64,000 bases of DNA from NCBI GenBank assembly GCA_965178125.1, contig OZ237735.1, positions 620,001-684,000 of the forward strand, written 5' to 3'. The notes beneath the pieces were generated by a model. That model did no database searches. It worked only from the letters and a program-made list of their open reading frames with translations, and was not told the origin of the DNA. Below are positions 1 to 30,400 of the stretch, in pieces. The translations under genes were made by a program, and so were the position numbers. Each line of letters starts with the position of its first letter. Within the stretch, counting starts at the first letter, position 1. This stretch comes from Bilabrum cf. latius (taxonomy: Eukaryota).

Positions 1-117
1 CATCGGTTTTGTCATCAAAAAATTACAATTTATTAAAGGTGATGCTTAATTTTAAATTGGAGCTGTAATTTTGCATTTAACTCTTCGAATGTGTCATAAA
101 CATATATTTGAGAGGGT
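1..117. repeat. Inner part of left terminal inverted repeat of the virophage
   Basis: Exact reverse complement of 26457-26573; the match stops at 118/26456. Confidence 0.95.
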
Positions 118-437: not shown

Positions 438-1328
438 ATGAGTCGTAATATTTATTTAACTGGACAATCCAGTGGAGCAAATGGGGCAGCTTCAATTGCT
501 CGTGTAAATGTAAATAGACAAACAGATATTATAAGTGATACTACGGGATGGTTAATTTCAGTAGAACGCTTAATTATGAATAAAATTCTTCTACCCTTAT
601 TTGATCCAAACGCAAATAAACCCACTATATCATTTCAAAATATTAGTTCTGGTGTCGTAACTTCTGAGGTTGTTGATTTTTCGGCATTTGATGACCAAGA
701 CGGATATATTTATGATTATAGAGATGTCGCCTCGGCAATATCAAATACATTTAGTTCTTTATGTTCAACTTTAAGTATTGCAGATGTTCCCATAATGACA
801 TTTAATGTATCAACAAATAAATTTGAAATTGTTTCGGTTGGTGCTTTTAGATCTGCTTGGAAAATTGGATTTAATAATGATCTATTTACTTACATGCCAT
901 CTTTTAATTATGAATCTGTTTTATCATCTCCTTATTATATTGAACTGGCAGAAGACAGAGAAACACAATATACAAGCACACTTGAGCTTATGTCCCCTGT
1001 TTCTAGAATTGTAATTAAATCGAATCTACCAACTGAAAACGAACTTTTACCTCCCCCAATTAACCAATCTGATGCAATCGCTGGATCTTCAGACAGTGCG
1101 GGTTTTCTAGTCGACTTTGATGTCCAACAGTCGAATAATCAGTCTGTTTCACTTATAAAATATAGTGCAAGAGATACTGACCATATATGGCACAATTTTA
1201 AAGAGTCTAGAAATATTAATTCATTCTATCTAGATTTTTATTGGTTTGACTATAATAATGTTGGTCATCCAATCGCATTAAATAAAAATTCACAAATTGA
1301 TATAAAATTATATTTTGTACAACAATAA
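438..1328 (+). CDS. Minor capsid (penton) protein
   Basis: 296 aa, beta-rich, immediately upstream of MCP as in mavirus; TCTA promoter; ends TAA. Confidence 0.75.
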   Translation: MSRNIYLTGQSSGANGAASIARVNVNRQTDIISDTTGWLISVERLIMNKILLPLFDPNANKPTISFQNISSGVVTSEVVDFSAFDDQDGYIYDYRDVASAISNTFSSLCSTLSIADVPIMTFNVSTNKFEIVSVGAFRSAWKIGFNNDLFTYMPSFNYESVLSSPYYIELAEDRETQYTSTLELMSPVSRIVIKSNLPTENELLPPPINQSDAIAGSSDSAGFLVDFDVQQSNNQSVSLIKYSARDTDHIWHNFKESRNINSFYLDFYWFDYNNVGHPIALNKNSQIDIKLYFVQQ

Positions 1329-1398: not shown

Positions 1399-3189
1399 AT
1401 GTCAAAATACTATAAAGATGTGGTCGTTATGATGCCATCAAACGAGAAATTTAAAGAGCCAAAAGACGTGATGTTAGGGGCAAGAGCCTCTAATTCTGAG
1501 TCTATAAGACGTGTTATTCCAGCCAGTAATGGCTCACCTGATAAAGGTCAAGCAGGAACAATTGAATTTAATTATAATTTCCCTAAGGGTGTGCAATCTG
1601 TGCCACAACTTCAGGCAGAGCTCACATTGACATTAAGAAAAATTAATAGCGAGGTGATTGCCGATAATAAAGCGTTATTTGGTAAATTCGGAATTAGACA
1701 ATTCGCATTAAATAGACTTATTGATAATGCCAAGGTAGAAATGAATGGGCACGAGTTCAGCTCCAGACCATCACAAACAACAGAGTGTTTTGTAAATTCT
1801 CAACCATTGTCTCAATTGATGCGTTTGTCTGATGCTCCAGCTGGTCAATTTATGACTACCTACACAGATAAATTTATTAATAACTCATTGCGTGAGGGTG
1901 CAAATGCTGTTGATACCGTTTCATCTAACGGGCTCGGGAATAACTGGACTTTCTCAGATGTTGCAGTTACTGCAGATGGTGCAGGTTTTGTAAAAGTTGC
2001 ATTAAAAGTTATCTATAGAGAGGTTATATTAGCTCAACCTTTCCAATACCATAACCCCAATCCAGTACCCTTTAGAAACCTAAAGGACTTCAAGTGTCAA
2101 TTTGACATTAAGGCATTGACTGGCTTGGTTGGTGACTTTTTAGTTGCTGACACAACAGCAGTTGACGCTACAACCACCGTTGAATGTACATCTTCTAAAT
2201 ATAGTTTACTTGTGCACACATGGAATCCAAGCTTAAACCCAATCATTCCTGAAGAAATCGTATATAATGCACCCGAAGTAACTAAGTTGGTTTCTCAATC
2301 TCAAAATATTGTATCTGGTGGTACTGTTACCCAAAGAACAATAGAAACAAGCACATTTGTACTTAATAGTGTACCTACTGCACTTTTCATATATGCTAAA
2401 AGAGAAAAACTAACCGATGGTTTAAGTTATGGACAACCTGATGAATACGCATCAATTAAAAACCTTTCTATCGGAACAGCCCAGAAAGAAGACATCTTTA
2501 GTAACTACACGCAAAGCCAACTTTATGAAATGTCAGCGTCCAACGGATACAACGAAAGGTACGCAAAATTTTCCCAGCAACAAGTGGGTGATGGTATATT
2601 CGGGCTTGGTTCAGTGCTAATTATTAAGCCTTCAGACATTCCTGCGGCATCTCAACAAGCCTTTATTAGTCACGCAAACGAGACATTTACTATGAAAGTT
2701 AAAACTCTATTGGATTGTCCAGTAACTGGAAATTATACACTTAATGTTCTAGCATATTATGACGATCTTGTTTTATTCAATGAAGGTGACAATGGCACTT
2801 ATAAATCTATGAGACCTCTCATTTCTGGTGAAGTATTATCTAAAGCACCCGTTGTATACTCTGAAAATACCGCTCAAGATAACCATATTGTCGGTGGTTT
2901 CTCCTTTAGAGACCTAGGAAACAGCGTTTGGTCAGGCCTTACATGGCTTGGTCGTCAATTACAAAGACCAGAGGTTAAAGCAGTATCTAGAACCCTAAGA
3001 AATTCAGGTCTTGCCCCTCAGGTAGCCGACGGCTCAGCAATTGGCGATTTTGTTTCTAGATTTGGTTATGGAAAAGGTAAGAAAACCACAAAGAAAGGGG
3101 GTGATTTACTAAACATTGGTTCAGGCAAAAGCAAAGGAGGTAAAAAGCTAAGCAAAGCCCAATTAAAAAAAATGCTTGACCAAATGTAA
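1399..3189 (+). CDS. Major capsid protein (double jelly-roll, virophage type)
   Basis: 596 aa, size and position typical of mavirus-like MCP; IVGG di-glycine motif ~96 aa from a basic C-terminus. Confidence 0.85.
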   Translation: MSKYYKDVVVMMPSNEKFKEPKDVMLGARASNSESIRRVIPASNGSPDKGQAGTIEFNYNFPKGVQSVPQLQAELTLTLRKINSEVIADNKALFGKFGIRQFALNRLIDNAKVEMNGHEFSSRPSQTTECFVNSQPLSQLMRLSDAPAGQFMTTYTDKFINNSLREGANAVDTVSSNGLGNNWTFSDVAVTADGAGFVKVALKVIYREVILAQPFQYHNPNPVPFRNLKDFKCQFDIKALTGLVGDFLVADTTAVDATTTVECTSSKYSLLVHTWNPSLNPIIPEEIVYNAPEVTKLVSQSQNIVSGGTVTQRTIETSTFVLNSVPTALFIYAKREKLTDGLSYGQPDEYASIKNLSIGTAQKEDIFSNYTQSQLYEMSASNGYNERYAKFSQQQVGDGIFGLGSVLIIKPSDIPAASQQAFISHANETFTMKVKTLLDCPVTGNYTLNVLAYYDDLVLFNEGDNGTYKSMRPLISGEVLSKAPVVYSENTAQDNHIVGGFSFRDLGNSVWSGLTWLGRQLQRPEVKAVSRTLRNSGLAPQVADGSAIGDFVSRFGYGKGKKTTKKGGDLLNIGSGKSKGGKKLSKAQLKKMLDQM

Positions 3190-3255: not shown

Positions 3256-4433
3256 ATGACTCCTCCACTTTCGAAAGAACAAAGGGAAATTTTAAGTAAT
3301 ATATATTATGATGAACATTTTTTATTTGGTCGTGATAAATTATATGAATTAGTTAAATCAAGAGGTTACGATATAAGCAGACGACAAATAATGAACTGGT
3401 TAAAATCTCAAGAAAACTATCAATTATACAAACCAATTAAACAAAAGAAAACAGTTCAAGCAACGGTATTAAAAAGACCTTATGAGCAGTTTGCAGTGGA
3501 TTTAGTAAATGTCCAAGATATCGAAAAAATAATAAAAAGTACTTGTTAACTGGCATAGACCTTTTTAGTAAAGAGGGTTTCGCATTTCCTATTAACAATA
3601 AGAAAAAAGAAACCGTATCAAAAGCATTAAAATTAATGATTGGACAATTAAATAAAAAACCATCAATTATTAGATCTGATAATGGGAGTGAATTTAAAAA
3701 TTCGGTTATGACTAAAATGTTAAAAAAAGAAGGAATAAAACAAGTATTCAGTAATCCCTATTCACCCGAGTCAAACGGTGGTATTGAACGTTTTAATGGT
3801 ACTCTAAAACGCATGATCAATAAGTCTTTACAGCTTAATAAAGATTGGGTTAATCTTATTTGGGATCTTGTAGATGCTTATAATAATTCTAAATCAAGAA
3901 TAACTAAATTTACGCCAAATGAAATTATTAAAAATAAAAAGTTATGGGAACAGGTTTATAAAAATACTAGAAAAGAAGCAAAAAATAAATTAGTGAATGA
4001 AAGTCATATATTAAAAAAAGGGGATAAAGTAAGAATGGCAAACCTTGAGGATAATTTAAACAGAGGTCAAAATTTCAGTAAAATAATATATGAAATTCAA
4101 GAAGTATACAAACCAAAGAAAACTTATAGTGTGCCTTCATATAAAATTAAAGGATTAAAAGGTAGATATTATAATGAAGATCTGCAAAAAATTAAATATG
4201 TAATGAATGAGCAAAAAGAAGAACAAAAATGGGTTATTTCAAAATTACTTAAACCTACATACAGAGATGGCGAACCTAGTTATTATGTTCTATGGAAGGG
4301 TTATAAAACGCCTACAATAGAGCCAAGAAAGAATTTAATGGAAGATGTTCCTAAAATGGTTAGAACTTATGAACGTTTATATTCTGTGAAATGGTATCCA
4401 AAAACTGAAACCTTTGACTTTGATTTAAGATGA
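3256..4433 (+). CDS. rve-family DDE integrase with C-terminal chromodomain, split by a 1-nt frameshift at ~3524-3529
   Basis: FAVDL (D1) lies in the first frame; IRSDNGSEF (D2) and SNGGIERFN (E) lie in the second. Chromodomain-like YYVLWKGY...EP. Adding one A to the A6 run joins the frames (EKNNKKYLLTGID). Confidence 0.9.
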
Positions 4434-5366
4434 ATTCAATTTATTCATGCAATTTAATAATATTTTTATTTGTTCCTGTTTTGACTTATCATTAATCATT
4501 GATAATATGGCGTCTTCTGGTTTTTTATCATTATTATTAGATTGACAATATTTAGTATATGTTAACATTTGAGTGCTTGGTGAATTTCCCATAACACGGG
4601 CTAAGTCTTCTCTTTCATCATTAGTAAATAATGTTCCTTTATTCATTTTCTCACTAATATAAACATTTCTAAAATCATTAATAGAAACTTTATTTTTAAA
4701 AATCTTGTTTAATATTTTTGTTATACTGGATTGGTCATTTTTTTTATTTGGATTCTTAAATGGAGATAAAACATATTCACATTTATATTTTTCTTTAAAA
4801 TGCTTACAGTAATATATTATACTATCTGGAACTTTAATATATTTGACACCATTTGACTTTTTAGTTTTATGATCGTATATGTGGAGCTCTTTTTCATCTA
4901 GTAATAATTTATTTTCTTCTTCGTGGTTGTCAGTATCTAATATTTTCGTTGTTAACCATTCCGTGACTCTAAGAGGTGGCATATATGCGTAAAGAGATAA
5001 AAGCCATGCTCTATATTCATTCATTTTATTATTATTGCCTCCTTCAATTTCTTTTAATTTCTTTTCAATATCAAAATATTTAAAACCTTTGATATGTTCC
5101 TTGGCATTTTTATTATAATATTTGTTGTTTTTTTTCAATTCAATTAATTGTTTATTTAATGTTTCATCATAATGTTTATTTATTGCCTTACAAACTGTTA
5201 TATATTTATGTAAAAAACTAGATTGGTTACTTTGTGGTACATCTTTTAAGTATTCCATTATTGGTTTATCTTGTTTCTCTATTTTTTCATAGATTCTAAT
5301 ATAATCATTTATGCTTTTTTCGGCAAGATTGGGCTTTATATTTTGTATTTTTTCATAAAAAGACAT
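4425..5366 (-). CDS. Tyrosine recombinase-like protein
   Basis: PPLRVTEW (R), HKTKK (K), INDFRNVYIS, LARVMGNS...LTY (catalytic Y) pattern. Confidence 0.75.
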   Translation of the reverse strand: MSFYEKIQNIKPNLAEKSINDYIRIYEKIEKQDKPIMEYLKDVPQSNQSSFLHKYITVCKAINKHYDETLNKQLIELKKNNKYYNKNAKEHIKGFKYFDIEKKLKEIEGGNNNKMNEYRAWLLSLYAYMPPLRVTEWLTTKILDTDNHEEENKLLLDEKELHIYDHKTKKSNGVKYIKVPDSIIYYCKHFKEKYKCEYVLSPFKNPNKKNDQSSITKILNKIFKNKVSINDFRNVYISEKMNKGTLFTNDEREDLARVMGNSPSTQMLTYTKYCQSNNNDKKPEDAILSMINDKSKQEQIKILLNCMNKLNSS

Positions 5367-6542: not shown

Positions 6543-9044
6543 TTAAAAATCTAATGCGTTCTTTTTGTTTCTAATGATTGTTTTCTTTTTTGCTACTATT
6601 TCTTCACCATGATATTCTAACAACCAATTTTTATTTTTGCATATCTTCATTATCTCACTGGGGATAAATGATAATTGTCTTGATGTCTTGGTTCTCTTTT
6701 CAACAATTCCAAAATGTGTTTCAAGATCATTATAAAATTCTGATTTATTTAATTTCTTATTGCTTAGATTATATTCTTCCTCAATGTATTCTTTAAATTT
6801 CTCGAATAAACTAGTTTTATTTGTAATGTATTTTTTAGTGTAACTTGTTGATTTCCAATATTCGGGGTAATCTTCATCAACAACATCAACTTCATCATCA
6901 GCTTCAAACTGGCAAGTTTCAACAAAATTAATAAGAAATTGAATTTTTTTATTTACACATCTCATCATTAACTTACGGTATGCTTTGGTAATTGGTCTTT
7001 CTTTCTGGAAATTATTTATTTGAATATCATAAGTGCCTAGATGATAATATACAGCATCACAAAATGATTTATGATGTTCTTTATTTGGACCATATGCCTC
7101 ATAAAAATTCTCAAAGAAATATTCAGTTTTTTCATTTGGTTTAAAAGAATCAAAAACAACAAATCGACGTTCTCCAGTCATTGAATCAATATAAACGGGT
7201 ACTTTTTTATTTGATACAAATAATAACCTTGTATAATTTAATGCTGACACTTTATTTTTGTTTTTAAATTCATAATGCCATGTGTTGGATGTTGTAAATT
7301 GTTTAATTCTTCCTGTTAAGTCACTTCCTTCTTCTGATTCTTCAAGATTGAATAATAATTTACCCATTAAGTAACCATTAAAGCCGTCATATAATACACG
7401 ACCCGATGCCTCACTTAAAATTTTATCTTTACTAAATATCCATGTTAATATTTCGGTTATACTTGATTTACCGCTTCCTTGGTCACCTGTTACAATAACG
7501 GAGGTTGACGTTTCTTTTTTGGTTGGGTTTTGTATCATATCAGCTAACCACTGAATCATATAACTAACAAATCCCTTATTATTGTTATCATCACCAAGAG
7601 CATAACCAATTAATTTATATAAATGTTTTATGTATGTGTCATAATTTTCTGGTTTCTTTGGTATTTCTGGTAGAGGAACATGCATATTAAAATTATTTTC
7701 TTCAATGCTCTTTTCAATATCATTACCAAGATATACTCCAACGCTGTCATAAATATGTCTATTAGTATCAAATGCATATTTCTTAAGAAAGGGTAGCCAT
7801 ACTTCAATATCATTCCCATCTTCATCTTTTTGATTGTTTCCCAATTTATCTTTTTTAATAATTTTATAGTTAGCACCATTAATAAGTGTTGCTAGTTTAG
7901 AAGGTTCATAAGAATAACAATATTTATAAGATTTTTCATAATAGCAGTTTGCAGATTTAACATATCCAAAAAACATTTCAAAATATGTTTTCATTGTTTC
8001 GTAATTCTCAAGTTTCGACATAAATTTAAGGTCGAATTGTTTCATTGCTTTATTGTTTACTGAATAACTAGAAAGATCGACCCCGAAGGTTTCCATTTCC
8101 TTACAAATATATTTTATATCTAAATCAAGATTGGTTTTAATGTCATGCTCAACCTTCTTAATTAATTTAGTTAATTCTTTTTCAATATTAGAATCTTTAC
8201 TAAAAGAAGAATGATAAACATTTAACCCATCGTGCACAATTGCATTAACCTTAAATTCAGATTCTTTGATATGTCTTTCAAGTGTATCTATGCATTTTCT
8301 TTCATATTTGAATAAAAGTTTACATAAAAATGCTCCTTTCTTGTTCTTCTTATCACCTTTTTCAATTGATTTTTTTAATTCTTCACCATCGAACAACTCC
8401 GCATTTTTCCATACATAATTTTGAATCTTGCGAGATTCTAAAGCAAAATCAATTATAAAATCTAACATTTCACCATCAAGTTCTTTTTTATCTTTTTTGA
8501 ATTTCAAGTTATCAAAATCAATTTTATCAAAATCATTATCTTCAATCCATGTTTGAATAGAACCGCCAAATAATAGACATTGAAAGACTTGTTTTACTTG
8601 ACCCCTGTTTAATGTTACATCATTTTTTTTGAATTCTTCAATGATGCTTTTAATAACATCTTTACGGTTCTTGCAGTAATGGGATAATTTAGGGGTTTTT
8701 AATTTCTTCAATAGAGAATTAAGAATTGAAGGGCATGAGTTGACAATATCAACGTCATAGCAAAAATCAGCAATTAATATATTTCTAATGGTTGCATCAA
8801 TAGTTTGTAATGAAATACCTTTTGTGTATCTTCGGCCTTCTGATTCTGTGTAAGTTGTTGGAATTTTTCCATATTTGTCATTGTATATTAAACACTTACT
8901 AAGCATTTTTCCAACTTTACCATAACATTCTTTTAAATATTCCTTTCTTGACTTCATCCATTCATTTTTAGATAAGGCAGAGGTAAAGGCTAATTTTACG
9001 AGGTTGTCATAATTGACTAATTCGGATCTTACGAAAGCAGACAT
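6543..9044 (-). CDS. PolA-like (TVpol) primase-polymerase fused to SF3/D5-like helicase
   Basis: Family-A-like motifs DVDIVNSCPSIL (A), RGQVKQVFQCLLFGG (B), AIVHDGL (C). Walker A GDQGSGKS, Walker B LFNLEE, sensor LLFVSN. Confidence 0.8.
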   Translation of the reverse strand: MSAFVRSELVNYDNLVKLAFTSALSKNEWMKSRKEYLKECYGKVGKMLSKCLIYNDKYGKIPTTYTESEGRRYTKGISLQTIDATIRNILIADFCYDVDIVNSCPSILNSLLKKLKTPKLSHYCKNRKDVIKSIIEEFKKNDVTLNRGQVKQVFQCLLFGGSIQTWIEDNDFDKIDFDNLKFKKDKKELDGEMLDFIIDFALESRKIQNYVWKNAELFDGEELKKSIEKGDKKNKKGAFLCKLLFKYERKCIDTLERHIKESEFKVNAIVHDGLNVYHSSFSKDSNIEKELTKLIKKVEHDIKTNLDLDIKYICKEMETFGVDLSSYSVNNKAMKQFDLKFMSKLENYETMKTYFEMFFGYVKSANCYYEKSYKYCYSYEPSKLATLINGANYKIIKKDKLGNNQKDEDGNDIEVWLPFLKKYAFDTNRHIYDSVGVYLGNDIEKSIEENNFNMHVPLPEIPKKPENYDTYIKHLYKLIGYALGDDNNNKGFVSYMIQWLADMIQNPTKKETSTSVIVTGDQGSGKSSITEILTWIFSKDKILSEASGRVLYDGFNGYLMGKLLFNLEESEEGSDLTGRIKQFTTSNTWHYEFKNKNKVSALNYTRLLFVSNKKVPVYIDSMTGERRFVVFDSFKPNEKTEYFFENFYEAYGPNKEHHKSFCDAVYYHLGTYDIQINNFQKERPITKAYRKLMMRCVNKKIQFLINFVETCQFEADDEVDVVDEDYPEYWKSTSYTKKYITNKTSLFEKFKEYIEEEYNLSNKKLNKSEFYNDLETHFGIVEKRTKTSRQLSFIPSEIMKICKNKNWLLEYHGEEIVAKKKTIIRNKKNALDF

Positions 9045-9484: not shown

Positions 9485-9561
9485 CATCATTATTATATAA
9501 AATATTTAGTATTAATATTAATTTAATTTTAATTATCCCTCTATATTACTTTTTTTTGGAA

Positions 9562-9678
9562 AGGGTGACAAAAGCGGTGACAAAACGTGATTTTTGAGGT
9601 CTCAGAAAATTTTATTTTTTGAAATCATATTTTTATTGGACTTGGAAATTCTGATTTTGTCACCGCTTTTGTCACCCT
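9562..9678. repeat. 24-bp perfect inverted repeat with tandem GTGACAAAA units; internal diverged copy of a TIR segment
   Basis: agggtgacaaaagcggtgacaaaa (9562-9585) / ttttgtcaccgcttttgtcaccct (9655-9678). The whole module is similar to the reverse complement of 26558-26672. Confidence 0.9.
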
Positions 9679-9686
9679 AAAATATT

Positions 9687-17188: not shown

Positions 17189-17245
17189 TAAATACGAATG
17201 AATTTTATTCTATTTTTATTAAAGAATAGATTAAAACTATTTGGA

Positions 17246-17527: not shown

Positions 17528-17537
17528 ATATATTCAT

Positions 17538-17849
17538 ATGGATATTAAATTATTAAATATTAAACCATCTACAAGAAAGAATAAAAGATTAATGGCAACA
17601 TTTAAATTAACTAAAAAAGGTTATGAACCAAAACAATATATTGTGCATTTTGGGGCTAGAAATGGAAAAACATACATAGACCATCAAGATAATAAAAAAA
17701 AAGTCAACTGGCTAAAAAGACACAAATACTATATAGAAAAAGCTGATTATGTCCCTTGGTCTGCTCCTGTGTTAAGCTGGAGAATATTATGGTCAAAGGA
17801 CAATTTAAAGGATGCAATAGATAATTATAGAAAGACTTATAATTTATGA
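17538..17849 (+). CDS. DUF5754-like small basic protein (common in NCLDV/virophages)
   Basis: PSTRKNKRLMA...VHFGA...YIDHQD...WLKRH pattern. Confidence 0.65.
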   Translation: MDIKLLNIKPSTRKNKRLMATFKLTKKGYEPKQYIVHFGARNGKTYIDHQDNKKKVNWLKRHKYYIEKADYVPWSAPVLSWRILWSKDNLKDAIDNYRKTYNL

Positions 17850-17879
17850 GAAACAAACTTTAAGAAAAATCTTATTGAA

Positions 17880-18500
17880 ATGTATATGTCAATGTTGAGT
17901 GATCTCCTCGATAAAAACACAAAAGATAGACAACAGGATCAAATATTTGTAGAATGTTATATAGGTTCAAAAATTACCCCACTATTAAGACTTCGTAAGT
18001 TTTTAATGGAACGTTATCCTCCTGAATTCTTTAAAAATGGAATTATTAAAAAAGACTTATTAAATTTACATAACACAGTAAATCGTATCAAGAAAGAGAG
18101 AACCGAATTATTATCAATCATATATGAAAAATATAATAAACTAACCAAAAATGAAAAAAGGAAATTAAGATGTCAAATGCCACTAGATTATAAAAAAATA
18201 TTCAAAAATGAACCAATACTCGTAAATCGAAAGTTTACAAGTTTTAGAAAACCATTAATTGATTATATTCAAGAATATGTAAATATGGATTTTATAATGA
18301 GACTTGAAGACGATATCGATGAATATCTATGGGGAAAACCCCTTGATGAGGTTATTGACCATTTAAATGAGAAATCTAATAAACATCTAGAAAAGTTATA
18401 TTTATGGCAACTGAATAAAAAAGAGATAACGGGCTTTATGAAAGTTGAAATAGAATTTAGAAGAATGCAAGAAGAAATTTATATAACCACTCATTTATAA
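17880..18500 (+). CDS. Hypothetical protein
   Basis: 206-aa ORF in AT-rich DNA; ends TAA. Confidence 0.7.
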   Translation: MYMSMLSDLLDKNTKDRQQDQIFVECYIGSKITPLLRLRKFLMERYPPEFFKNGIIKKDLLNLHNTVNRIKKERTELLSIIYEKYNKLTKNEKRKLRCQMPLDYKKIFKNEPILVNRKFTSFRKPLIDYIQEYVNMDFIMRLEDDIDEYLWGKPLDEVIDHLNEKSNKHLEKLYLWQLNKKEITGFMKVEIEFRRMQEEIYITTHL

Positions 18501-19203
18501 ATCCGTAAAGTTCTTTAAAGCATGTACATTAAAATAATTATTCTTTTTATGAGGGCTGGTATAAAATGTCACTTGATCAGGATTCATAAATTGGGCTAAA
18601 TTATGACTTACAGGGTCGCCATCTACAACATGATATTTAATATTACCAATGTTAAATTTAGGGTCTCTTATCATTTCAAAATTTAAAGCTGGATTAAATG
18701 AATGTCCTTTAATTTCTTTACCGTATTTTTTAGTAAGATATGCAACCATCCCAGAACCCAGTGAGTGAGAAGCAAAAGAAATATTATGATCTGGAAAAGC
18801 TTGTTTGACAGCTTCATAAATATCAACTAGATCTTTAAAGTTTTCACTTTTATCTAGTGTGCCTTGTGCTATCTTTAAATCATCCATAACGTCCGATCCG
18901 TCAACTGTACCCCTAACTCCAATAATGATATTTTTATTTTTAATATAAATTTTTCTTCTATCATCTTTAAAGATTACACGATAACCGTCTATTATATCCC
19001 TTTGTTTAGTCTTTGGGTATGTTTGACGTGCAATTTTAGCGTGTAATTTAGCTTCCTTACTTAATTGCTGTAGTTTCTTATTTCTTCTTGTTAAAAATCT
19101 ATAAGTTCCCACGGGTACATCTTTAATAAATTCCCAGACATTCCCGCCCTTTACTCGTTTTTTTAAAATTTGTATAATTTCTTTTTTTGTCAATTTATTT
19201 TTT
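18495..19203 (-). pseudogene. Class-3 lipase/alpha-beta hydrolase, interrupted in codon 2 by Ngaro (first 5 nt ATGCC at 25868-25864)
   Basis: IGVRGT, ASHSLGSG nucleophile elbow, DGDPVS, C-terminal H. Removing 19204-25863 restores ATG CCA AAA AAT AAA TTG ACA. Confidence 0.85.
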
Positions 19204-19379
19204 TGATCCTAACGCCGGATGGGGTTCGGTGTTGATGCCAGAGTGGGAGCGCGTGAACGTCTCGTTGGGTTCCGATGGCGGTTGCGACCGGGAAGGTGCG
19301 ACCAAGCCAACGGATTGCTTGCGATGACGCGCATACCCTCTCTGTGTTCAGGAGAGGGGCGGAGATTGGGTAATTTTTG
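19204..19379 (+). repeat. Ngaro repeat A1
   Basis: Matches A2 (25532-25707). Confidence 0.95.
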
Positions 19380-19407
19380 AAGAAAGTTCCTGCTCCGTTC
19401 ATTTAAC

Positions 19408-22400
19408 ATGAACAGCGCCGGTAGCCATCGGATCGACCCGGCGGCGCGCGGGGCAGCAGGCAGCGCCAGGGTGATCGCCGCAGCTGCAGTGTTCGCTCGC
19501 GCGGTAGGCCAACCTGCGGTCACGTTGGCCGATTTAGCTACTCGATATGGTATGAATGATGCTGTGTTCTCGGATTTCATTGCTCGTCTCAACGTGCAGC
19601 GCGACACCATGGCACCTCGCGATCCCGATCTTCGACGTTCACACGATGCGGGGTTCCTGTGCTACTTGCTCGACAGGTACTCATCAAAGCAGTCCTTTAC
19701 GGCATCACGGTCCATTAATGCTGTCAAGAGCACCGCTCTCGCCAGGTTCGTGTCAAATGGGACGCTAACGACTCTCGGTGCACGGCTGCTTCTGCCGGCG
19801 TCGCCGAGCTCTCCTCGACGGCAACAGCCTGAGCGACTCGCAGGACAAGTACATCTTCATCCTGTTCAGCAATCTCCAGAGGCTCCTTCTTCAATCGAGT
19901 CTCCATGGTCCCTGAGTTCACTACCGACGGGCCGGGGGACAGCTTCTCTTCGCGGACAGCATCGGCCACCAGGACGCCTCGACTTCGGCGCCGCCATCCA
20001 TGCTTCACCTGGACGCGACCGAGCGGCGTAGAGTGCCACCAGGACAAGCCGCGGAATTTCGCCCTTGCGGGCGCGGCCAGGCTCTTCGACGCGGCCGACC
20101 CCGCTCGCGCGGGGCGGGCGGGCCCACCTGCACGAGTCCCCGAACCGAGGGCCCCCGGGGACAGCAGCAGATACCCAGCGCAGCGGCCAGCCCAACTTCT
20201 CAACGTCTTCACCCCCGCGGCACCAACCTCCACCTGCCTCGGGCAGGCTCCCCGGTAGGCCAGGCACTCGGGACTTCGGCGATCCGACAGTGCTCGCGGA
20301 GGCGCTCAGCAGTGCAGCATCACGGTCAACGGGCCCGGCAGGCCCTCAGCTTCTTCTTCCTCGTGTGTCTCCGGCTTATGACTCCCCCGGCGTGACTCCG
20401 GGAACCAGCCGCTAGCTTGATGCGGTCTGGGGCCGCCTTCCTGGGGATCTCCAACGGGCAGTGTTGCACTCCACGACGCTGCGGGGAAAGGCCGACCCAG
20501 CGACAATTCTGCATCTACGCCTGTTTGCGCTGTGGCACAGCATTCCGACTCTACGCCAGCAAGAGCTGCTGTCGCACCTCTCCGCCCACGTGGAATTACA
20601 ATGGTACTTCTAGCACCGACTGGCAGCTTCGATGCACTCATCCCCGCCACCGGTCGACGTTCTACCCGCTCATCAGCCTCCCCGTGAACCTCCTGTCTCA
20701 TCTTCTGCCTCACCGCAGCCTGCGTCTTCAATTGACCCAGTTTCACCGGGCGCAGGCACGGCAGTGGACTCCGCGGTCGGTCGCTCGCAACCAGTGGAGA
20801 ATTTGTAGCGTGAGGCCTCTGCACCTTCAATCGCTGCAATTCGAATGCAGAATTGGTTTTCTGATGATTTCTTGGCAACGTTGACCTCGATCTTTCGCCA
20901 ATCCGCGTTCATGCCGCGGTTTTGCTAGGCTGACGCGCTTCATTTGGACGCTAGCGGCCGCGATTTCGCTGCCGAACTGGCCCGTGCCCTGTTTGGTCAG
21001 GCTGTGACGAGAGCCAAGATTGAATCGGCTATTTTCTCGTTCACGAGCCGGCTTCATGCAGCTCTGCCGATGAGCAATGCTAGTTTTGGGGAGTTTGATG
21101 CGTCCAACTCGGAGTCGTCTGCTGCAGGCGGACGAGACAAGTAGGTACCATCTAGCGAGTTACTATGCACTATTTACTCGGCTATTTCCTTTGCTTTAGG
21201 CTGTGTGCTTGTGCGGGCTGCTTGCGTGAATTCGACGGCGTCCTTGCCGTCCTGGTTGCCGCAGGGCAGCAGCTCGTGGTAGTGTCCAGCATCACTAGTG
21301 CCCGATTGGAAAACCTTAGGGCAGGTTCGCAATGATTTTCTTCGTTTAGTTAGTGCTTCCGGGGCATCATCTGCATCGGCGTCCAGACTAGAGGTGGTGT
21401 TTGCCGCTGTGTGTGTGATACCACGCGGAAGTTCAGCTTTTGAGATGCTCTCATCCCATGCTTGGCGCCATACAGGCGAACGCTGTGACGTTGAGATTCG
21501 TGACCTTGTTGGGAATGAGATTCCATCGTGCTCTTCTGGCGACTGCATGCGTCTCCTACAATTGCTGCATCCGTGGGCCACTGAGGCATGCAGATCAGGC
21601 GAACCTGGCCTCGTGCGCGGACTGCTACAGGGAGTCCAGGCTGACATGCAGGCGCCGTCCCGTCGAGCAGCACTGTCCCGTCACTTCGACCCCCGCGGGG
21701 GCAGTGGAGGCCGGGGCAGTGGAGGCGGGGGCAGTGGAGGCTCCAGGCGCAGCGGGGGTGACAGCGACCAGCCCAGTGCCGATCGTGGCGGAGGTCGACA
21801 CCGTCGAGGCCGTGGACGTGGCGGTGCAGGCCAGCAAGGTGGCCAGCACCAGCGTGCGGACCGGCAGGACGGGGGTTCCACCAGGAAGTCCAAGGAGCCT
21901 TCACCTGACCCCCCCCCACGAGGTACGTCACGTCAGAGCCAGCCCAGCACTCCAACACCAACACTGCCGCAGGGGCGTACGCAGACTACCACCACATCGG
22001 ACGCGTGTGCTGCTTCCACACCACCTGTCACGTCAACGCCCGCGCTTCACCCAGTCCTGGTGGCCCTAGCGCGCCCTAAGCGACCGCAGCGGCCGCCCAC
22101 GGCGTCATCCACGAGGCTGCCAGGTAGGACGGACATCTCTCCAGCATTCGTTGACTGGGCATATCCAGCTCCGGATCCAAGCCATGAGTGGGCAGGGACG
22201 ACAGCACCCTCCGTCGAGGACTTCATACAGCGAAAGGACGATCACCAGCGTATCAGAGAATGTCCCGGCGAATTCGTGGAGGCTCCAGCTGCGACGTGGG
22301 ACCGTGAGCGGCTCCACCTGAAGGTTCACGACGACCCGCTGGCATTCACGCCACGCAAGTACTTCGACAAGGTGCCTCGCTAGACTGCAACACTGCGGAC

Positions 22401-25167
22401 CCGGCGGGAGGTTCTGTTTGGCGGCCGCACACCGAGGAAGGCCCCGTCCCTTGCCGAGTTTAAAGCCCTCCCACGAGTCGAGCGTGTACTGGCAGCACTG
22501 AACTATGGTTGCCCCCTAGCCATCGTGGACGAGGTGCCCAAAGAGCACGATCTAGACTACAAGGACCGTAAGCTGTCTCCGGAAGAAAAGTGGGAGATCG
22601 CCTGCGAGATCGGGCGCTCCATGCGGGCTGGCGAGCGTGACTTCGTGTCACCCAAAGATTTCGACACAGCCCGGGCCCGGCCGCTGGTGATCCCCAAGAA
22701 GGACTCGACAAAGCTACGGTTCCTTCAGGACTCCTCACTCAAGGTGAACGGCCAGCGTACCGGTCTGAACAAGGCCATCGACTACAGTGCAGCCACGCCT
22801 GTGCAGCAGACGAGCAGCATGGACGTGCTGCGCTCGGCAGCCGCAGCAGTTCGATCCTGCCCCAAGCGTGCCAGCGGATACGTCGTCGACATTTCCTCGT
22901 ACTTTCGGGTCCTGCCGGTGGCAGTGGAGGATCTCCAATACAACCTGATCAAGCTGCCCGACGGGCGCATCGTGCAAGATTTCAGGCTCTCTATGGGCAG
23001 CTCATCATCTCCCGCCTTCGCAACTACGATCAGTTCGGCTTTGGCCCAAGCCCTCGAGGAGCAGTCCATTGGCAGGGCCATGCGACCCGGACGGAGACAC
23101 AAGCAGAAGCAACGACGCCGGAAGCAGCAGCACGCCAACGCCCAATCCAGCACGACGGACCAGGCGCCCCAGGCGAACTCGTCAGCAACGTCCACCCCGC
23201 CTGCCGCTAGCACGACAACGGGACATGTCAAGACGGCCCAAGACTAGTCCCGCCATTGGTAGGTCGAAAATGAGGTGTTTGTAGATGACTTTGCCTGCCT
23301 CGGCGGAGATCACGAAGTCGATGCATGGGCAATTCGAGCCATGGGGCAGCTGGACTCCACAAACTTCCCCGTCAGCATCTCGAAAGCATTGAAGCAAGGG
23401 GCCCCAGCCCCGGTGTTCGAGTACTTGGGCCTCACCTACGACTTGATCAAACACGAGGTGCGGTGCCCTAAGGACAAGGCCAACGACGTCCTGCGCAGAC
23501 TGCACGAGGCACTCACGACGAAGGGGATGCTACTGTCTAGCTTTGAGACCTTGGTCGGCAAGTTGTCCTTCCTGTCGGGCGCACTTTATGGTATGCGCGG
23601 TGCTCTACGTCCCCTGTATGACGCCAAGGGCTGGGCCCTTCACAAGTAGGCCAGCCGGTCACGACCAGGTGAGGTGTGGGTCCCCACCTCCTTTGTGTCC
23701 AAGGGTGGCTTCACAGTTGGGGAAATCCTCGAGGGATTCCAGGTGGCTATCCAGCGCAAAGGCGGGCGCAGCTTTCCGATGCGGGGCACCATTGACTGTC
23801 CCATCCTTCGCACTGATGCGTCGGTGACAGGCTACGGCGCCGAGCTGCTTCTCCACGACAAGGACGGCAACATCACTTCGCACACCGGCATCCAGGGCAC
23901 TTGGCCGCATCGCCTAGAGGCGAAGGATGTAGCGGCGGCAGAACTTGCAACATGTTTGTTGGCACTGGCGCATTGGCGACAGCACCTGCGTGGACGTGTG
24001 GTGCGTTTGTGGTGTGATAATGATGCTTCCGTGTAGCTGATACGCTACGGCAGACCCAAGAGCCACATCATGGCAGCCTTACTTCGCCCTATCTTCGTAC
24101 TGCAGACAACGCAAGATGTGCAGATTCACGTGAAACACATTCCTGGCGAGGACAACGTCGTTGCGGACGCTTTGAGCCGCGGCTCACAGGAGGCATACAC
24201 GCACCTGGACGCGGTGTATCAGGTCGACTGTCCCACGCCGATCTGGAACACCTTGTACAAGCACGACCATTTCACGCTGGTGGCCACTCTGGACTCAGTG
24301 GGTTGCGCACGGCGTGGGGGCACTTCGACAACTTCCTCACGTGGTACGACATCGACCGCAGTTTCATGGACGGGCATCTTCCAGCAGCTCGCAGACTCTT
24401 CGCGTTCAGGCTCAATGCAGCGCTCTCGAGATTCGCAGTCTTCTTAGGGGAATGTTCGCCTCTCAGTGGCGGCACCATCGCTACATACACCAGAAATGCC
24501 TAGCGAGTCGTCATCGAGTCCACAGGAGCGTGCGGCGTCCCACGGTCACGCTAGCTCGACAGCATCCTCCGGTACTACCACAAAGCATCGCCATCGGCGC
24601 ACCCGTTGCGTCGATCTTCAGCCCCACTCCGCGCAATCCGACGGTGTTTCTCGACAGCCGGTTGCAGCACAACAGAGTAGGCTGCTCGGACAGCTGTCTG
24701 TCTCTGCTTCTGTGGGGGCCTCCGGCTGGGAGAGCTCGTCGGTGCGTCCAGACGACAAGCCGGCCTCCAATGGCAGCAAGTGCAGTTCATCACGCGAGAC
24801 GGACGCATCCATGGTGTTGCCATCCGCCTGGGCCTCCACAAAGCCGACGGCCCAGCCAAGTTCTCCATCCCAGCCGCAGAGCCCATCGCAGTCCATTGCA
24901 GAGCCGGACGATGGGCAGTCACAGGCAGCAGGTTCTGCGGCGTGCGAGCCTTCGTGGCGTGGGCAGCAGCGAGCCACGCCCCAACTGCAGGCGCAGACGA
25001 AGACTACGCCCGGTAGCTGGCGCTCAGCTGCCCCACGTCAGGGCCAGTCTTCGTGGCGAACACGAAGCCGATCGTCAAGGCGCAGGTAGTACGGGCGCTC
25101 CGCAGCTTCTGCTCACGAGAAGTTGCAGGAGCGGTGCACGGACATTCCATCCGCATCGCGGCAGTGA
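19408..25167 (+). CDS. Ngaro Gag-like/RT/RNase H polyprotein, 1919 aa if TAG=Gln
   Basis: One frame with 14 TAGs and no TAA/TGA until TGA 25165-25167. RT motifs VVDISSYF, LSMGSSSSP, FVDD, YLG. RNase H motifs TDAS, AAAEL, WCDN, HIPGEDNVVADALSR. Confidence 0.85.
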
Positions 25168-25361
25168 TGTGTTTGGACCGTGCTGGGGTCGCCTTCGAGG
25201 TCATTAGGCGATTTGGCAGATGGAAGTCGGCATCTGCATGCGAGGTGTACTTGCGGGGCGTCAGGGAAGGCTTGCCTCCTCTGGAGCTCGGCGGCAGGAG
25301 CCTCGATTTGAACAGGCCAGTGTGGGTGCTGGCCAGCGCGCTGCGGCTGAACTTGGAGTGA
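24303..25361 (+). CDS. Ngaro tyrosine recombinase (start uncertain; frame open from ~24024, first ATG 24366)
   Basis: With 4 TAGs read through: GGLRLGEL (R), HKAD, HGHSIRIAA (HxxR), FGRWKS...VYLR (Y); ends TGA. Confidence 0.85.
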
Positions 25362-25401
25362 GCCACACAGCCGCAGCGTACAAGACATGGCGGTAAGATT
25401 T

Positions 25402-25863
25402 GGCGGAGTAGTGCACGTGCTCTTCCCAGCCCCGGTCAGTCCGGTCAAGGGTCGCGCACAGGCACAGCTTTGTCAGGTCTTGCCATGTCTGATTGTTAAC
25501 GAGACTAGGTTGCGCGTACACTCTGGCATCATGATCCTAACGCCGGATGGGGTTCGGTGTTGATGCCAGAGTGGGAGCGCGTGAACGTCTCGTTGGGTTC
25601 CGATGGCGGTTGCGACCGGGAAGGTGCGACCAAGCCAACGGATTGCTTGCGATGACGCGCATACCCTCTCTGTGTTCAGGAGAGGGGCGGAGATTGGGTA
25701 ATTTTTGCCCACCCTCCCAACCCCCTCCTCCTCGGCGGAGTAGTGCACGTGCTCTTCCCAGCCCCGGTCAGTCCGGTCAAGGGTCGCGCACAGGCACAGC
25801 TTTGTCAGGTCTTGCCATGTCTGATTGTTAACGAGACTAGGTTGCGCGTACACTCTGGCATCA
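25402..25863 (+). repeat. Ngaro B1 (25402-25531), A2 (25532-25707), C-rich spacer, B2 (25734-25863)
   Basis: B1 matches B2 (130 bp) and A2 matches A1, by direct comparison. Confidence 0.95.
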
Positions 25864-25914
25864 GGCATATATAAGTTAACATAATAAAAAAAAATATCTA
25901 ATGTTATATATATA

Positions 25915-26541
25915 ATGGCTTTAGAAATAGCTATTTCATCAGTAAGCGGAGCTTCGGCTCTAGTAGCATTAGGCTATTATGGGGTGTCCTGCATGGGCAA
26001 GGTAAAAAAAGCATTTGACATTAAGAAGGCATGTCTTGTAATTCCCAAGGGATGCGGAAAGACTACATTGTGTAAGAAATTTGAAGGAAATGACACGAAT
26101 CTTTTAGTCGTAGACCTTGACGAATTGGTATCAAAGCATCCAGATACGGACAAATCTTTTTTAGAAGGATTAGAAAAAGCTAGGGAGTCAGGCGATGACT
26201 CAACATATAGGGTATTATATCAAGAACTGGCAAAGAAAGTATACGAATCATTAAAAAAATCATGGTTAACAAAAAAAGAAAAAAGAATGTTGTGTTTGAC
26301 TGGATCATTAGAACTAGCCCAAGAATTATTTAAAAAAACTAGTATTTTCGTTGCCTCACCATCAAATAAATTATTTAAGGATCTTGTATATGAAGCAACA
26401 AATGAAGTACAAGAAGTAATGAGAAGAGAAAGAACAAATTTAATATCCGAACTGCAACCCTCTCAAATATATGTTTATGACACATTCGAAGAGTTAAATG
26501 CAAAATTACAGCTCCAATTTAAAATTAAGCATCACCTTTAA
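25915..26541 (+). CDS. P-loop NTPase/kinase-like protein with hydrophobic N-terminus
   Basis: CLVIPKGCGKTTL Walker A, LLVVDLDE; TCTA promoter; the last 85 nt lie inside the TIR. Confidence 0.7.
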   Translation: MALEIAISSVSGASALVALGYYGVSCMGKVKKAFDIKKACLVIPKGCGKTTLCKKFEGNDTNLLVVDLDELVSKHPDTDKSFLEGLEKARESGDDSTYRVLYQELAKKVYESLKKSWLTKKEKRMLCLTGSLELAQELFKKTSIFVASPSNKLFKDLVYEATNEVQEVMRRERTNLISELQPSQIYVYDTFEELNAKLQLQFKIKHHL

Positions 26542-27459
26542 TAAATTGTAATTTTTTGATGACAAAACCGATGACAAAATTAATATTCTGAACTCTACAG
26601 AAAATATGATTTTAAAAATAAAAATTTCCTGAGACCTCGAAAATCACGTTTTGTCACCGCTTTTGTCACCCTTCTAAAAAAAAGTATAATAGGCAAGTAT
26701 TCTGAAAATATTATTATATTCCATTAATATATTAATATTTAATATTATTAGTTATCTGTATTACTTTTTCAATTGGTGACAGAATTTAAAAAAAATATTT
26801 TATTGTCTTTCTCAGTAAATTAATTAAAATAAATTATTATAATATTATTTCTAACTTTTATTACTATATCACTTTTAAGCGAACGAAGAGAGCGACCCAA
26901 TGCATGAACTCAAATTATAGAGCCATAAATAAAGCAATAAAATATTTTAATGATTAACCCCTTAAAAATTCCCATAATAAAATAAATATGCTTTTTCCAT
27001 TTCTTAAAAACGAAAACAAAAAATAAATAAATTTATTTTCTGCTTTCTGGCGAACTTTTTTTAAAATGTGAGCCATCCGCCAAATTGTACAAATTATAGA
27101 AATATAATAAATATTATTTGATGATCCATTTATAAATTAAATTCTTCGAATTTAATTATTTTCATTCTATCGAATAAAAATAAATTTTGATAAAAATCAA
27201 TAAATTGATTTAATCTTAATCCGCGAAAATATTATAAAAAAATAAAAAGTATAGCATGTAACGAATTATAATTATTCAATATATTACAACAAAATTATTA
27301 TTTTATAAAAAATTTAATTATACAAAAAAATATAAATAAATAAAAAAATAAAAGTGAATATATGGACACATTAAAAAAGTGAAGCATGCGTGACGTAGTC
27401 CGAAAATAAAATAGGAATATAATGTCATTATATTCCTATTTTATTTTCGGACTACGTCA
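26457..27459. repeat. Right terminal inverted repeat (~1 kb; outer part inferred)
   Basis: 26457-26573 pairs with 1-117; the remainder is AT-rich and non-coding up to the host junction. Confidence 0.8.
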
Positions 27460-27460
27460 C
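27390..27460. repeat. Perfect terminal palindrome (35-bp arms, 1-nt centre)
   Basis: gtgacgtagtccgaaaataaaataggaatataatg-t-cattatattcctattttattttcggactacgtcac. Confidence 0.97.
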
Positions 27461-30400
27461 CGCCTCGAGTGCATCCTGGATATCCTGCGCGGATGACCTA
27501 TCACCGCCCTACACGACCTGCTCTACTACCTTGGACACGTGCACCTCCAGCACTTGCGCGGCAGCGGCAGCTGTCGATGGCCCCGCTGCATCCTCTGGAC
27601 CCCCCGCAGCACCAGCACCAGGCCCAGGCCCAGGCTGGCTGCTGGCGGCGCCGCCCCCGGCCGAACCCTCGCTGCTTGTCACGGCAGGTCCAGCTGCACC
27701 AGATACGGGCTTGCCACTCGTCATCGTGACCAGTCCGACCTCACCGGGGCCCCGATACCGCGCGTCGCACGCAAGCAGCCAATCCACGCACTGGAGCGCC
27801 CTGCTCCCGTCCAAGTCCTCAGGCCGCATCTCGGCAGCCTCAGGCTCCGAGGAGTCGCCACCTTTCGACTTGGACCCGCCACTGTCGCGCTTGCCACCGC
27901 TTGACTTGTCGCCATCACCGGTTCCAGGCTCCTCTAGCCCAAAGGCGACGGAGTCGGCCCACTCCCTCACCATCCCGATGGTGACCCGGCCCAGGCACGG
28001 GCGCAGCGCATCGACGATGCGATCAATCGCTTCCTGGGAAGCTCGCACGAAGGTCTGTCTGCAAGCATCCGCCAGCACGCATTCCTCGATTGCTGCTGTA
28101 GACAGGTACGCCACGTGTGCGCCCATGGTGAGCAGTGCCTGCAGCTCAAAGTGCTCGCTGGGGTCCAGCTCAAAATCGCCGACTTCGTGCTTGCGCGGAG
28201 ACCTCGAGTAGTCCAGCTGCTCGAGGAGCTGCCACATCGAATGCAATCGCTGAGCATGCAGCTTCTTGACGGCTCTGCTGAGGCCAGCGCGCCGGAATGC
28301 AACGCCGATGCTGTCGGCATGGAGGACGTCCCCGTGGACCACCGATTTTGCCGAAAGCGATGCTGGCTTGCTACCTGCACCCTCTGGGACACTCGTATCC
28401 TCGCCGCTCGTGTGCATGCCCGCCAGTTTAGTCTTGTGCTGAACCCGTGCGATCAAGCGAAGGCCAGCTCCCTCGCTGCTGGAGCTAAACGCGTCGGCCG
28501 CACCAGCTGAGGCCTGGTCGCTGGGGTGTTCCGCGACGCACCTTGACTGTGCCACGGCTTTGGAGTGGAGCATCAAGCTGCGAACCATGTAGCCGGCAGC
28601 GCGGGCGCTGACGCCGATGAGTGGGTAGCCTGCCGTATCGTGTCGGGATGCGAGGCGAAGCACGTCGAGCAGCTGCCACTCCGACACGAGTCCTGCGTGC
28701 TCGACAGCAGCCGTTTCCACAGCTTCCAGTGCCGCAGCATACCCATTTACTGCTTCGTGGAATACGGACCTGAACAGCCTGCGAGCAGAGGCCCTGGCCC
28801 CAGCGTCGTCGCCGGGACGACATCCGACCAGGCACAGGCCCCTCACGGCTGAAGGCTTGAACCGAAGGCAGTCCTTGACTCTCTCTACCACCCGAGCATC
28901 GCACATTCCAGCCTTCTTCGCGTTGTCGCTTTTCTCCAGTACACCCCGCAGATCACCCACCGTGACGGCATCTGCAAAGTGCGCAAGCGACGCGATGTAC
29001 CTCGCAGCCCCAGCCGCTCGCAGCAGCCCATCGCACGGCGCGGCCTCCGAAGTGATGCGTCTGATCCAGCTTTTCTGCTCCCTCGCCTGCACAGCAACGG
29101 TAGGATCATGCGCCGCGCCGTCGCCCTGGCTCAGCGCGACTTGCCCCTCGATCCCAGCCGCCGCCAGGGGGTCCTCCCCGACCGCCAGCAGGTCGAGCAC
29201 CGCGCCCTGCTTGCCTCTCATGAGGGTGCGACCCGTGCGAATGAACGCAGCGATGCGATCTTGCAAGGATTCAAGCACCTCTGGCTCTACTCGGTCACCC
29301 GTGCTGCATGCTCTGCCTCCTGCACCCAGAGCTGCGCTGCACAATTTGCTCACCTGGGCGAGTGACAGGCTGTTGGGTGGCACGATCCTTGCTGCTTGCT
29401 CTGCTGCGGATTTCACATCGGCTGTCACAATCACGTCAGTTGATGCTGTTGACGATCTACGAAGCACGATAGGCTGCTGCAGACCCACCTTTGTGTCCTT
29501 CTGGTCAATGCTTCCCTGCTTGACTGCTTCTGTAGGAGATTCAAGCCCCAGTGCATCGGCACCCGGAATACCTCGCCCCCCCTCAATGGTCTCCTCCTGC
29601 GAGAAGCACTCCATGATGCGGCGCTCCACCTGGGTCGGCGAGCACCACGCGAACTCCTTCATGGCATCCTCGTCGCCGGCACGCAGGGCCGCCAGCTGCC
29701 TCTGATGGCCCCGGATGGTGACCCCGTACTTGCTGAAGGAGCCCGGGTCATCAACGTCGATGTCATCCACGGTGATCACCCCCTCGCTCTCGAATCCCGG
29801 CAGGTACTGCTCCATGCCCGCCCTGAACAGCCACTCGTGTATGGACATGAGGTTCCCAACGGTAGATATCTTGCCCTGCGCCTGCAGCAGGCTGTCCACG
29901 GCCGCCTGGCTGCTTGCAGCGCGAGGGTCGTCCCTGTGCTTGAGCAGGTGCCCTTGCAGCGCCGCGGGTGCCAGTTGCTTGCGACTGCATCGCTGAGCGA
30001 ATGTCTGGGCCATCATCTCCAGCTCTTTCGTGGTGAAGGCCGCTGCTGCAGAAGACTTGCTCGGAAACTATCTGCCCGTTGGGTCGGCTTGACCTGCGCC
30101 CGCGTCGTTCGAAGCGGATGGCTTTCCCGACATTCGATCCAGGGCCTCGGCATCCTCCTCCTCATGACCGTCCTGCTTGCCCCCTATTCGCCGCTGAATG
30201 CCGTGCGAATAGAAGTGCGTGAACATCTTGCGCATCTGATTCGGAGACGCGTAGTCGAGCTTGACGTGCACATCACAGCGGCCCGGGCGCACGAGGGCTG
30301 GATCGAGCTTCTGCAGGTGGTTGGTGGTCATGAACACGACTCGTCCTTGTTGAGAGGCCACCCCGTCCAGGGCGTTTAGGAGACCAGAGAAGGAGACGCC

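Follow-up and report, generated by a model that had tools for sequence, protein, structure and literature searches.

What is the role of a perfect palindrome that forms the outermost end of an integrated virophage, and could it be the trace of a hairpin with which the ends of the viral DNA are copied? The question is raised by a window of 64,000 nt (64 kb; the whole stretch of DNA that was analysed, and to which all positions refer), in which a mavirus-like element ends in a palindrome of 71 nt. An earlier note on this DNA had proposed closed hairpin ends for the free genome, with the tyrosine recombinase (YR) of the element as the enzyme that resolves them. The features on which the answer depends are collected in Table 1.

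Table 1. Positions of the features discussed, numbered from the first letter of the window.
Feature	Position	Strand	Basis or remark
Left terminal inverted repeat (TIR), inner end	1..117	.	Exact reverse complement of 26457-26573
Penton (minor capsid) protein	438..1328	+	PDB 6g41 'Minor capsid protein', E 2.3e-45
Major capsid protein (MCP)	1399..3189	+	Pfam MCP_V20_C 1.7e-13; PDB 6g45; PDB 3j26
rve (DDE) integrase, split frames	3256..4433	+	Pfam rve 1.5e-12
Tyrosine recombinase, Cre/Xer-like	4425..5366	-	313 aa; R133, K167, R233, Y270
Primase-helicase-type replication protein	6543..9044	-	833 aa; DUF5906 3e-14
Internal copy of inner-TIR module	9551..9683	.	Imperfect inverted repeat, 2+2 GTGACAAAA boxes
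Right TIR	26457..27460	.	1,004 bp; palindrome is the outermost 71 bp
Same module inside right TIR	26551..26683	.	82% complementary to 9551-9683
Perfect 71-nt terminal palindrome	27390..27460	.	Inner arm 27390-27424, centre T 27425, outer arm 27426-27460
Host flank, 61% GC	27461..27560	.	Composition

The palindrome and its place at the end of the element

The two arms of the palindrome, each of 35 nt, are 100% complementary and have a single T as spacer, which confirms the 35-bp perfect arms around one T described in the earlier note. The note had the palindrome end in ...GTCA; the CA is indeed present, at 27459, but the perfect palindrome stops at ...GTCAC, at 27460. The boundary between palindrome and host DNA is ambiguous by 1 nt (27459 vs 27460), and if the CA is the true end of the element the arms would be 34 bp long, with the 35th pair formed by chance. 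Enzymes of the rve type usually join a CA end.

Symmetry is perfect at 35 of 35 pairs, including the 22 AT-rich pairs per arm that lie between two GC-rich boxes. These boxes are formed by the outer 13 nt of either arm (62% GC), and the 45 nt that separate them have a GC content of 13%. The 13-bp box (GTGACGTAGTCCG) is absent elsewhere in the window at up to 2 mismatches. As single-stranded DNA the palindrome folds at -37.2 kcal/mol with 34 pairs and a 3-nt loop, compared with -6.3 +/- 2.05 kcal/mol over 200 shuffles (z = -15), none of which was as good.

Beyond the two arms themselves, no further arm copy with up to 3 mismatches was found in the 64-kb window, and 0 of 100 shuffled controls gave any arm match. 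When the whole window was scanned for perfect hairpin palindromes (arms of at least 10 nt, loop of at most 6 nt, perfect pairing), the 71-nt palindrome was recovered together with one other, with arms of 10 nt, at 27135-27157. The chance expectation for a palindrome such as the terminal one, calculated from the base composition of the element, is about 1e-14 per 64 kb. A chance origin is ruled out by the shuffles, the whole-window scan and this expectation. Most likely the virophage genome has this palindrome as a built-in part of its ends, and neither chance nor a local event produced it.

The palindrome coincides with a break in composition, from 21% GC in 26457-27389 to 61% GC in the host flank. 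AT-rich DNA of the element (about 28-30% GC) occupies 1-19203 and 25864-27460, and from 27461 onwards the GC content is about 61%. On the host side, a long minus-strand ORF (27509-30016), which has matches to the BCS1 lid and the SAM domain, stops 48 bp short of the junction.

At the right end of this one copy, the palindrome lies inside the TIR, at its outer tip, and directly adjoins host DNA. The TIR length of 1,004 bp is inferred from the exact match of 117 bp between the two ends of the window's element DNA, the remainder of the left TIR being upstream of the window. In window coordinates the left tip should fall at -886, i.e. about 886 bp upstream of the window, which agrees with the "~0.9 kb upstream" of the earlier note. 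Because the visible 117 bp of both TIRs are identical, the left tip is expected to be identical too, and since a palindrome reads the same on both strands, this very sequence would stand at the end of an intact left TIR. By this symmetry the left tip probably carries the same palindrome. An exact scan for 24-nt stretches of the tip among bacterial and archaeal genome contigs returned 0 stretches.

A P-loop ATPase-like ORF (25915-26541; AAA_14, E 0.0022, below cut-off) extends 85 nt into the right TIR, so the left TIR must hold a copy of the 3' end of this ORF.

The virophage and its genes

The element is a linear, TIR-bounded, mavirus-like virophage, with a size of about 21.7 kb after subtraction of a Ngaro-type retrotransposon. 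Its MCP is related to the double jelly-roll MCPs of virophages with solved structures, and matches PDB 6g45 'Putative major capsid protein' (E 2.8e-55, residues 7-591) while the match to capsid protein V20 of 3j26 is far poorer (E 3.7e-8). We take the PDB 6g4x entries to be those of mavirus, and the element is therefore read as mavirus-like. Its penton gene lies just upstream of the MCP gene, a gene order that has been described as a rule for mavirus-like elements (PMC8547959). The earlier note had called the locus the end of a provirophage, which is well founded, since the capsid proteins match solved virophage capsid proteins and the palindrome tips a 1,004-bp TIR.

An rve integrase and long TIRs, which are also expected of a mavirus-like virophage, are both present, though the integrase gene is frameshifted. 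Its two halves (3256-3549 and 3543-4433) are separated by a 1-nt frameshift in A-runs near 3525-3545. Either the gene is truly inactivated or the assembly has an error in a homopolymer there. The C-terminal Chromo match of the integrase is weak (0.0033, below cut-off). The ORF at 10289-11350, checked as a packaging ATPase, gave weak P-loop matches (E >= 0.019), and the ORF at 9687-10250, checked as a cysteine protease, gave 0 Pfam or PDB matches.

Relatives of the MCP are few, with 5 at E <= 0.001 among 8,000 scored candidates from a set of 5.8 billion proteins; the best has 63% identity and none is named. A tblastn search with the MCP against a phage collection gave 0 matches, and 110 pattern matches from a scan of bacterial and archaeal genome contigs with the MCP alignment included 0 that were confirmed by tblastn. 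The lineage appears to be barely sampled.

Two adjacent ORFs (13807-15855 and 15887-16459) have nearly the same N-terminal peptide (MSISNLL..NNLDL). The first, the longer of the two, is rich in N, T and G, and a phage tail fibre matches it weakly (E 0.038). The two are possibly paralogous fibre proteins.

A GC-rich (about 60%) insertion of 6.66 kb occupies an intergenic spot of the virophage at 19204-25863. It has the split repeats of a Ngaro-type retrotransposon in the layout A1-[ORFs]-B1A2B2, both at 100% identity (A, 19204-19379 and 25532-25707; B, 25402-25531 and 25734-25863), with weak reverse transcriptase (RT) and RNase H matches and six in-frame stops in the pol frame (21283-25092). 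With its identical TIRs and identical Ngaro repeats, the element is young. A solo Ngaro A repeat (6327-6504; 99.4% identical over 178 nt, without a B repeat) lies between a zinc-finger-like ORF (5429-6085) and the primase-helicase gene. Just upstream of this gene there is also a patch of 46.5% GC (9061-9475) in the AT-rich element, in which 32 nt (9195-9226) resemble the beginning of the Ngaro A repeat at 90.6%; the patch may be a remnant of another type of retrotransposon.

The AT-rich DNA has 23 ORFs that reach 80 aa, three of them nested in others. The absence of PolB claimed in the earlier note is upheld for the 20 that are not nested, which had 0 matches to a protein-primed polymerase (pPolB) or other polymerase at E <= 5. 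The polymerase expected of a mavirus-like element is thus lacking in these ORFs, and the unread 886 bp are TIR. Only two ORFs are long enough for a pPolB, and they encode the helicase (6543-9044) and the fibre-like protein (13807-15855). The sole replication gene recognised in the element is that of the primase-helicase, a putative D5-type protein. For its N-terminal half the nearest Atlas clusters are viral, two of them with D5_N on 31-38% of their members; this putative D5_N link is a lead only, and the comparison of the protein with the PDB gave no meaningful match. The Pfam matches of the 20 ORFs included no Rep/HUH family, i.e. no HUH Rep nickase. The palindrome is found alongside an rve integrase and replication genes other than pPolB. 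Because a primase-helicase replaces the protein-primed polymerase, the element needs another answer to the replication of its ends, and hairpin ends are the classical alternative to protein-primed end copying.

The TIRs also contain a second type of repeat. It is a module of 133 nt, itself an imperfect inverted repeat, whose AT-rich spacer is flanked by two plus two (G/A)TGACAAAA boxes 12 nt apart. Each TIR has one copy, and a further copy lies inside the element, on the upstream side of the primase-helicase gene. The copy in the left TIR is placed by symmetry, around window positions 1-23 and upstream. This module is a candidate origin or promoter. The recombinase gene, the primase-helicase gene and the internal, TIR-derived module are clustered within 4425-9683.

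Readings of the terminal palindrome

We tentatively read the tip as a terminal hairpin, used to replicate the ends, that has been unfolded into duplex DNA; this may well be correct, though we are not confident of it. The hairpin is a plausible reading of the sequence; nothing in the window shows covalently closed ends. Under such a scheme, the last 35 bp of each end would fold back to give a self-primed 3' end or a closed telomere, and a polymerase supplied by the helper virus or by the cell would copy the folded ends. The hairpin would be unfolded by a site-specific nick where the palindrome begins on its inner side, and copying would restore the perfectly symmetrical tip in each round. The outer end, ...CGTCA(C)-3', would be the one that the DDE integrase joins to the host, and because it is this CA end that is joined, the provirus would keep both arms. 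DDE integrases leave a 3'-OH, as the unfolding of a hairpin needs, and tyrosine recombinases have the chemistry for sealing. The possible assignment of nicking and sealing to the two enzymes follows from this general enzymology, and hairpins are presumed to form in vivo.

The hairpin is favoured because the symmetry is perfect, including the AT-rich spacer, and because the element is linear and lacks a pPolB. The symmetry of the spacer fits templated fold-back copying, and selection on two binding sites would not maintain it. The palindrome also lies exactly at the TIR tip and at the composition break, and no pPolB was matched in the 20 ORFs scanned. Further points in its favour are the hairpin priming proposed for the Halocafeteria virophages (10.64898/2026.07.28.741278), the joint change of TIR and primase/helicase in Cafeteria EMALE04 (PMC10945749), and the PLV 'end module' (PMC11296320), whose three parts are also neighbours here. 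Several points weigh against it. Only one end of one copy is visible, the element ORFs scanned include no HUH Rep nickase or protelomerase, and the encoded primase points to internal, RNA-primed initiation over self-priming. The integrase is frameshifted in this copy, and in a young element a perfect palindrome would persist however it had arisen. The preprint on Halocafeteria also names an alternative, accidental annealing at breaks in a single strand (10.64898/2026.07.28.741278).

A bolder form of the hairpin reading would have the virophage replicate as a small hairpin-ended linear genome, which is sealed by the recombinase or by helper machinery and nicked by the DDE integrase 35 nt from the tip; we think this rather unlikely. 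Within it, the 71-bp tip would be the replicated telomere, and the nick would unfold the hairpin both for copying and for joining to the host, which is likewise a doubtful proposition. The helper giant virus may have a hairpin-ended genome too. If true, this would add a third solution for end replication to the virus group, beside circles and protein priming. The parasite would then be copying the telomere biology of its helper, with the work split between two enzymes that are both called integrases.

The palindrome could alternatively be a symmetrical protein-binding site, with a dimeric terminal protein on the two inverted 13-bp boxes (GTGACGTAGTCCG) and a hairpin that never forms. The protein might be a packaging factor, the integrase within its intasome, or the primase-helicase bound to an origin. 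A recognition sequence is suggested by the position of two boxes of 62% GC in a TIR of 21% GC and by the absence of the box, at up to 2 mismatches, from the rest of the window, and palindromic origins are usual for replicons with SF3 helicases. In Cafeteria EMALE04, moreover, the TIR and the primase/helicase co-vary (PMC10945749). However, the perfect symmetry of the 45-nt spacer of 13% GC is left unexplained by a pair of binding sites, and the separate repeated module with its GTGACAAAA boxes looks the better candidate for an origin or promoter. Taken as a whole, and whichever protein is meant, a binding site is an unlikely explanation, though one to be taken seriously.

It is also conceivable, but in our view quite improbable, that the palindrome is a one-off by-product or artefact without a role in the life cycle, in which the outer arm was added once. 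The arm could have come from fold-back synthesis or from repair of a hairpin-capped break during integration, from a tail-to-tail insertion that was abortive, or from an error of assembly; together these routes are no more probable than that. A one-off event would agree with the single end of a single copy that is visible and with the broken integrase of this copy, and accidental annealing after single-strand breaks is the alternative cited in the preprint (10.64898/2026.07.28.741278). Against this, the sequence is continuous, 27 kb and 36 kb from the ends of the window and with unique flanks, unlike the fold-back artefacts of contig ends. The CA that rve enzymes usually join sits at the outer end of the palindrome, not at its centre. 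The same arrangement also recurs at TIR tips next to target-site duplications (TSDs) in several Halocafeteria subtypes (10.64898/2026.07.28.741278). Two of the routes were considered on their own. An assembly fold-back was judged unlikely, as the palindrome is short and has unique sequence on either side, and tail-to-tail joined and then truncated elements are less economical and put the element end at ...AATG, not CA.

The version of the hairpin reading in the earlier note gives a part to the recombinase. Virion DNA would end in covalently closed hairpins, with the recombinase serving as the telomere resolvase that makes them at a replicated junction, and the integrase would nick after CA on the fold-back strand. 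The recombinase does belong to the element, as the earlier note had held. On its own it had no Pfam match and no single-sequence PDB match; it was recognised through its relatives (389 at E <= 0.001), a profile and a predicted structure. The alignment was built with 60 of 150 listed relatives, the longer ones among the first 74 listed. R133, K167 and R233 are invariant in the 61 aligned members, and a His and Y270 are nearly so. Pfam Phage_integrase was matched by 15 of the 61, at best with 6.3e-10. A retrotransposon origin of the YR was rejected, as no tyrosine recombinase was recognised in the GC-rich insert (19204-25863) and the YR is the element's own gene.

In favour of this version, an intact-looking tyrosine recombinase is encoded beside the integrase, protelomerases share the catalytic fold, and the protelomerase TelA is among the fold matches. 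The perfect palindrome resembles telRL of phage N15 and a site in a phaeovirus element (PMC13236599), and the action of a recombinase on the ends of polinton-like viruses (PLVs), for the resolution of dimers, has been suggested (PMC11296320). However, the best fold matches of the predicted structure (pLDDT 92.5) are XerA (E 1.3e-5), Cre (TMq 0.57-0.59) and integrases, with TelA at rank 27 (E 0.024, TMq 0.39). Among PDB entries the family profile picked out an integrase (3nkh, E 8.5e-4), and protelomerases were absent from its matches. Known resolvases are larger and have extra domains, for which a protein of 313 aa has no room. In the MGHS motif before the catalytic Tyr, this recombinase has Asn where at least 90% of the 61 aligned members have His, so that the near-invariant His of the family is replaced. 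The palindrome is also of odd length, and the symmetrical 6-nt stagger of telRL-type sites cannot apply unchanged (PMC13236599). A dedicated telomere resolvase of the N15, Borrelia or Agrobacterium type was not found. The element has a recombinase of its own and of the right catalytic class, with nothing that marks it as a telomere resolvase, and we regard this version as very improbable.

Comparison with known systems

The earlier note had seen in the palindrome a new replication and integration strategy for a virophage, a claim that has since been overtaken. A preprint of July 2026 on endogenous virophages and PLVs describes palindromes at the TIR tips of pPolB-less virophages in Halocafeteria seosinensis, 52 nt long in subtype 5 and next to target-site duplications, and proposes a model of hairpin-primed replication (10.64898/2026.07.28.741278). 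In our literature search, terminal palindromes in virophages were found in this preprint only. As in the element described here, the palindrome lies at the outer TIR tip at the host junction and is accompanied by an rve integrase and non-pPolB replication genes, and some of the Halocafeteria elements also have a tyrosine recombinase (10.64898/2026.07.28.741278). The palindromes differ in length (52 nt in subtype 5 vs 71 nt here) and are likened by description, not by sequence. The host is a different one, since the preprint gives Halocafeteria a GC content of 47% and no Ngaro elements (10.64898/2026.07.28.741278). Judged by their capsid genes, the Halocafeteria virophages appear to be another lineage.

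In its general build the element resembles the endogenous mavirus-like elements (EMALEs) of Cafeteria burkhardae, which are AT-rich provirophages in GC-rich host DNA with TIRs of 0.2-2.3 kb, and which share the intergenic Ngaro insertion with its A1-[ORFs]-B1A2B2 repeats and the solo repeats (PMC8547959). Mid-GC EMALEs combine an rve integrase with a tyrosine recombinase and have no pPolB, as here, whereas low-GC EMALEs carry a pPolB and this element of 28-30% GC does not (PMC8547959). The local GC content of the host is about 61%, compared with a genome average of 70% for C. burkhardae (PMC8547959). Neither 'palindrom' nor 'hairpin' occurs in the main text of that paper.

In the Cafeteria EMALE04 elements, the version of the primase/helicase and the sequence of the TIR change together (PMC10945749). 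A related unit has been described in PLVs as an 'end module', consisting of inverted repeats, a primase-helicase and a tyrosine recombinase, in which the repeats are suggested to be both origin and substrate of the recombinase, with resolution of dimers at hairpin-type ends (PMC11296320). The same three parts are found together in the present element (4425-9683). The elements of that study are PLVs of entomopoxviruses, and the rve integrase is an additional component here; 'palindrom' does not occur in its main text (PMC11296320).

A telRL-like palindrome with fold-back reads has been reported in a phaeovirus element of Ectocarpus (PMC13236599). With this site, and with telRL/TelN of N15, ResT of Borrelia and TelA of Agrobacterium, the present locus shares a perfect palindrome and a nearby enzyme of the tyrosine-recombinase fold. 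In protelomerase systems the palindrome would be the replicated form of two hairpin ends, a further shared trait. Unlike these systems, the element has no dedicated protelomerase, its palindrome is of odd length and lies at the tip of an integrated element and not internally, and integration is of the DDE type.

Poxviruses, ASFV, chloroviruses and parvoviruses have linear genomes with inverted terminal repeats and fold-back tips, and their duplex palindromes arise when the hairpin is unfolded and copied. The loops of poxviruses and ASFV are incompletely paired and occur in flip and flop forms, and parvoviruses use an HUH Rep nickase. In contrast to the pox and ASFV telomeres, the arms here pair perfectly and only the central base is unpaired. 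The rolling hairpin of parvoviruses differs in its nickase, as the Pfam matches of the 20 ORFs include no HUH Rep.

The observed palindrome is a real feature and a further case of the terminal-palindrome pattern that has just been described. Its discovery value is smaller than it would have been a year earlier, as the preprint already contains the pattern and, with it, the idea of a hairpin (10.64898/2026.07.28.741278). For the copying of ends in linear virophages and PLVs without a protein-primed polymerase, the palindrome at the TIR tip provides a concrete, testable handle, from which one would expect reads that fold back, DNA that snaps back and a nick at a defined site. The present locus links the pattern to the neighbourhood of a recombinase, a primase-helicase and a TIR-derived module, a unit of the kind that others have proposed to move together. 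Beyond Halocafeteria, it adds to the pattern a mavirus-like lineage whose host is a different one and rich in GC.
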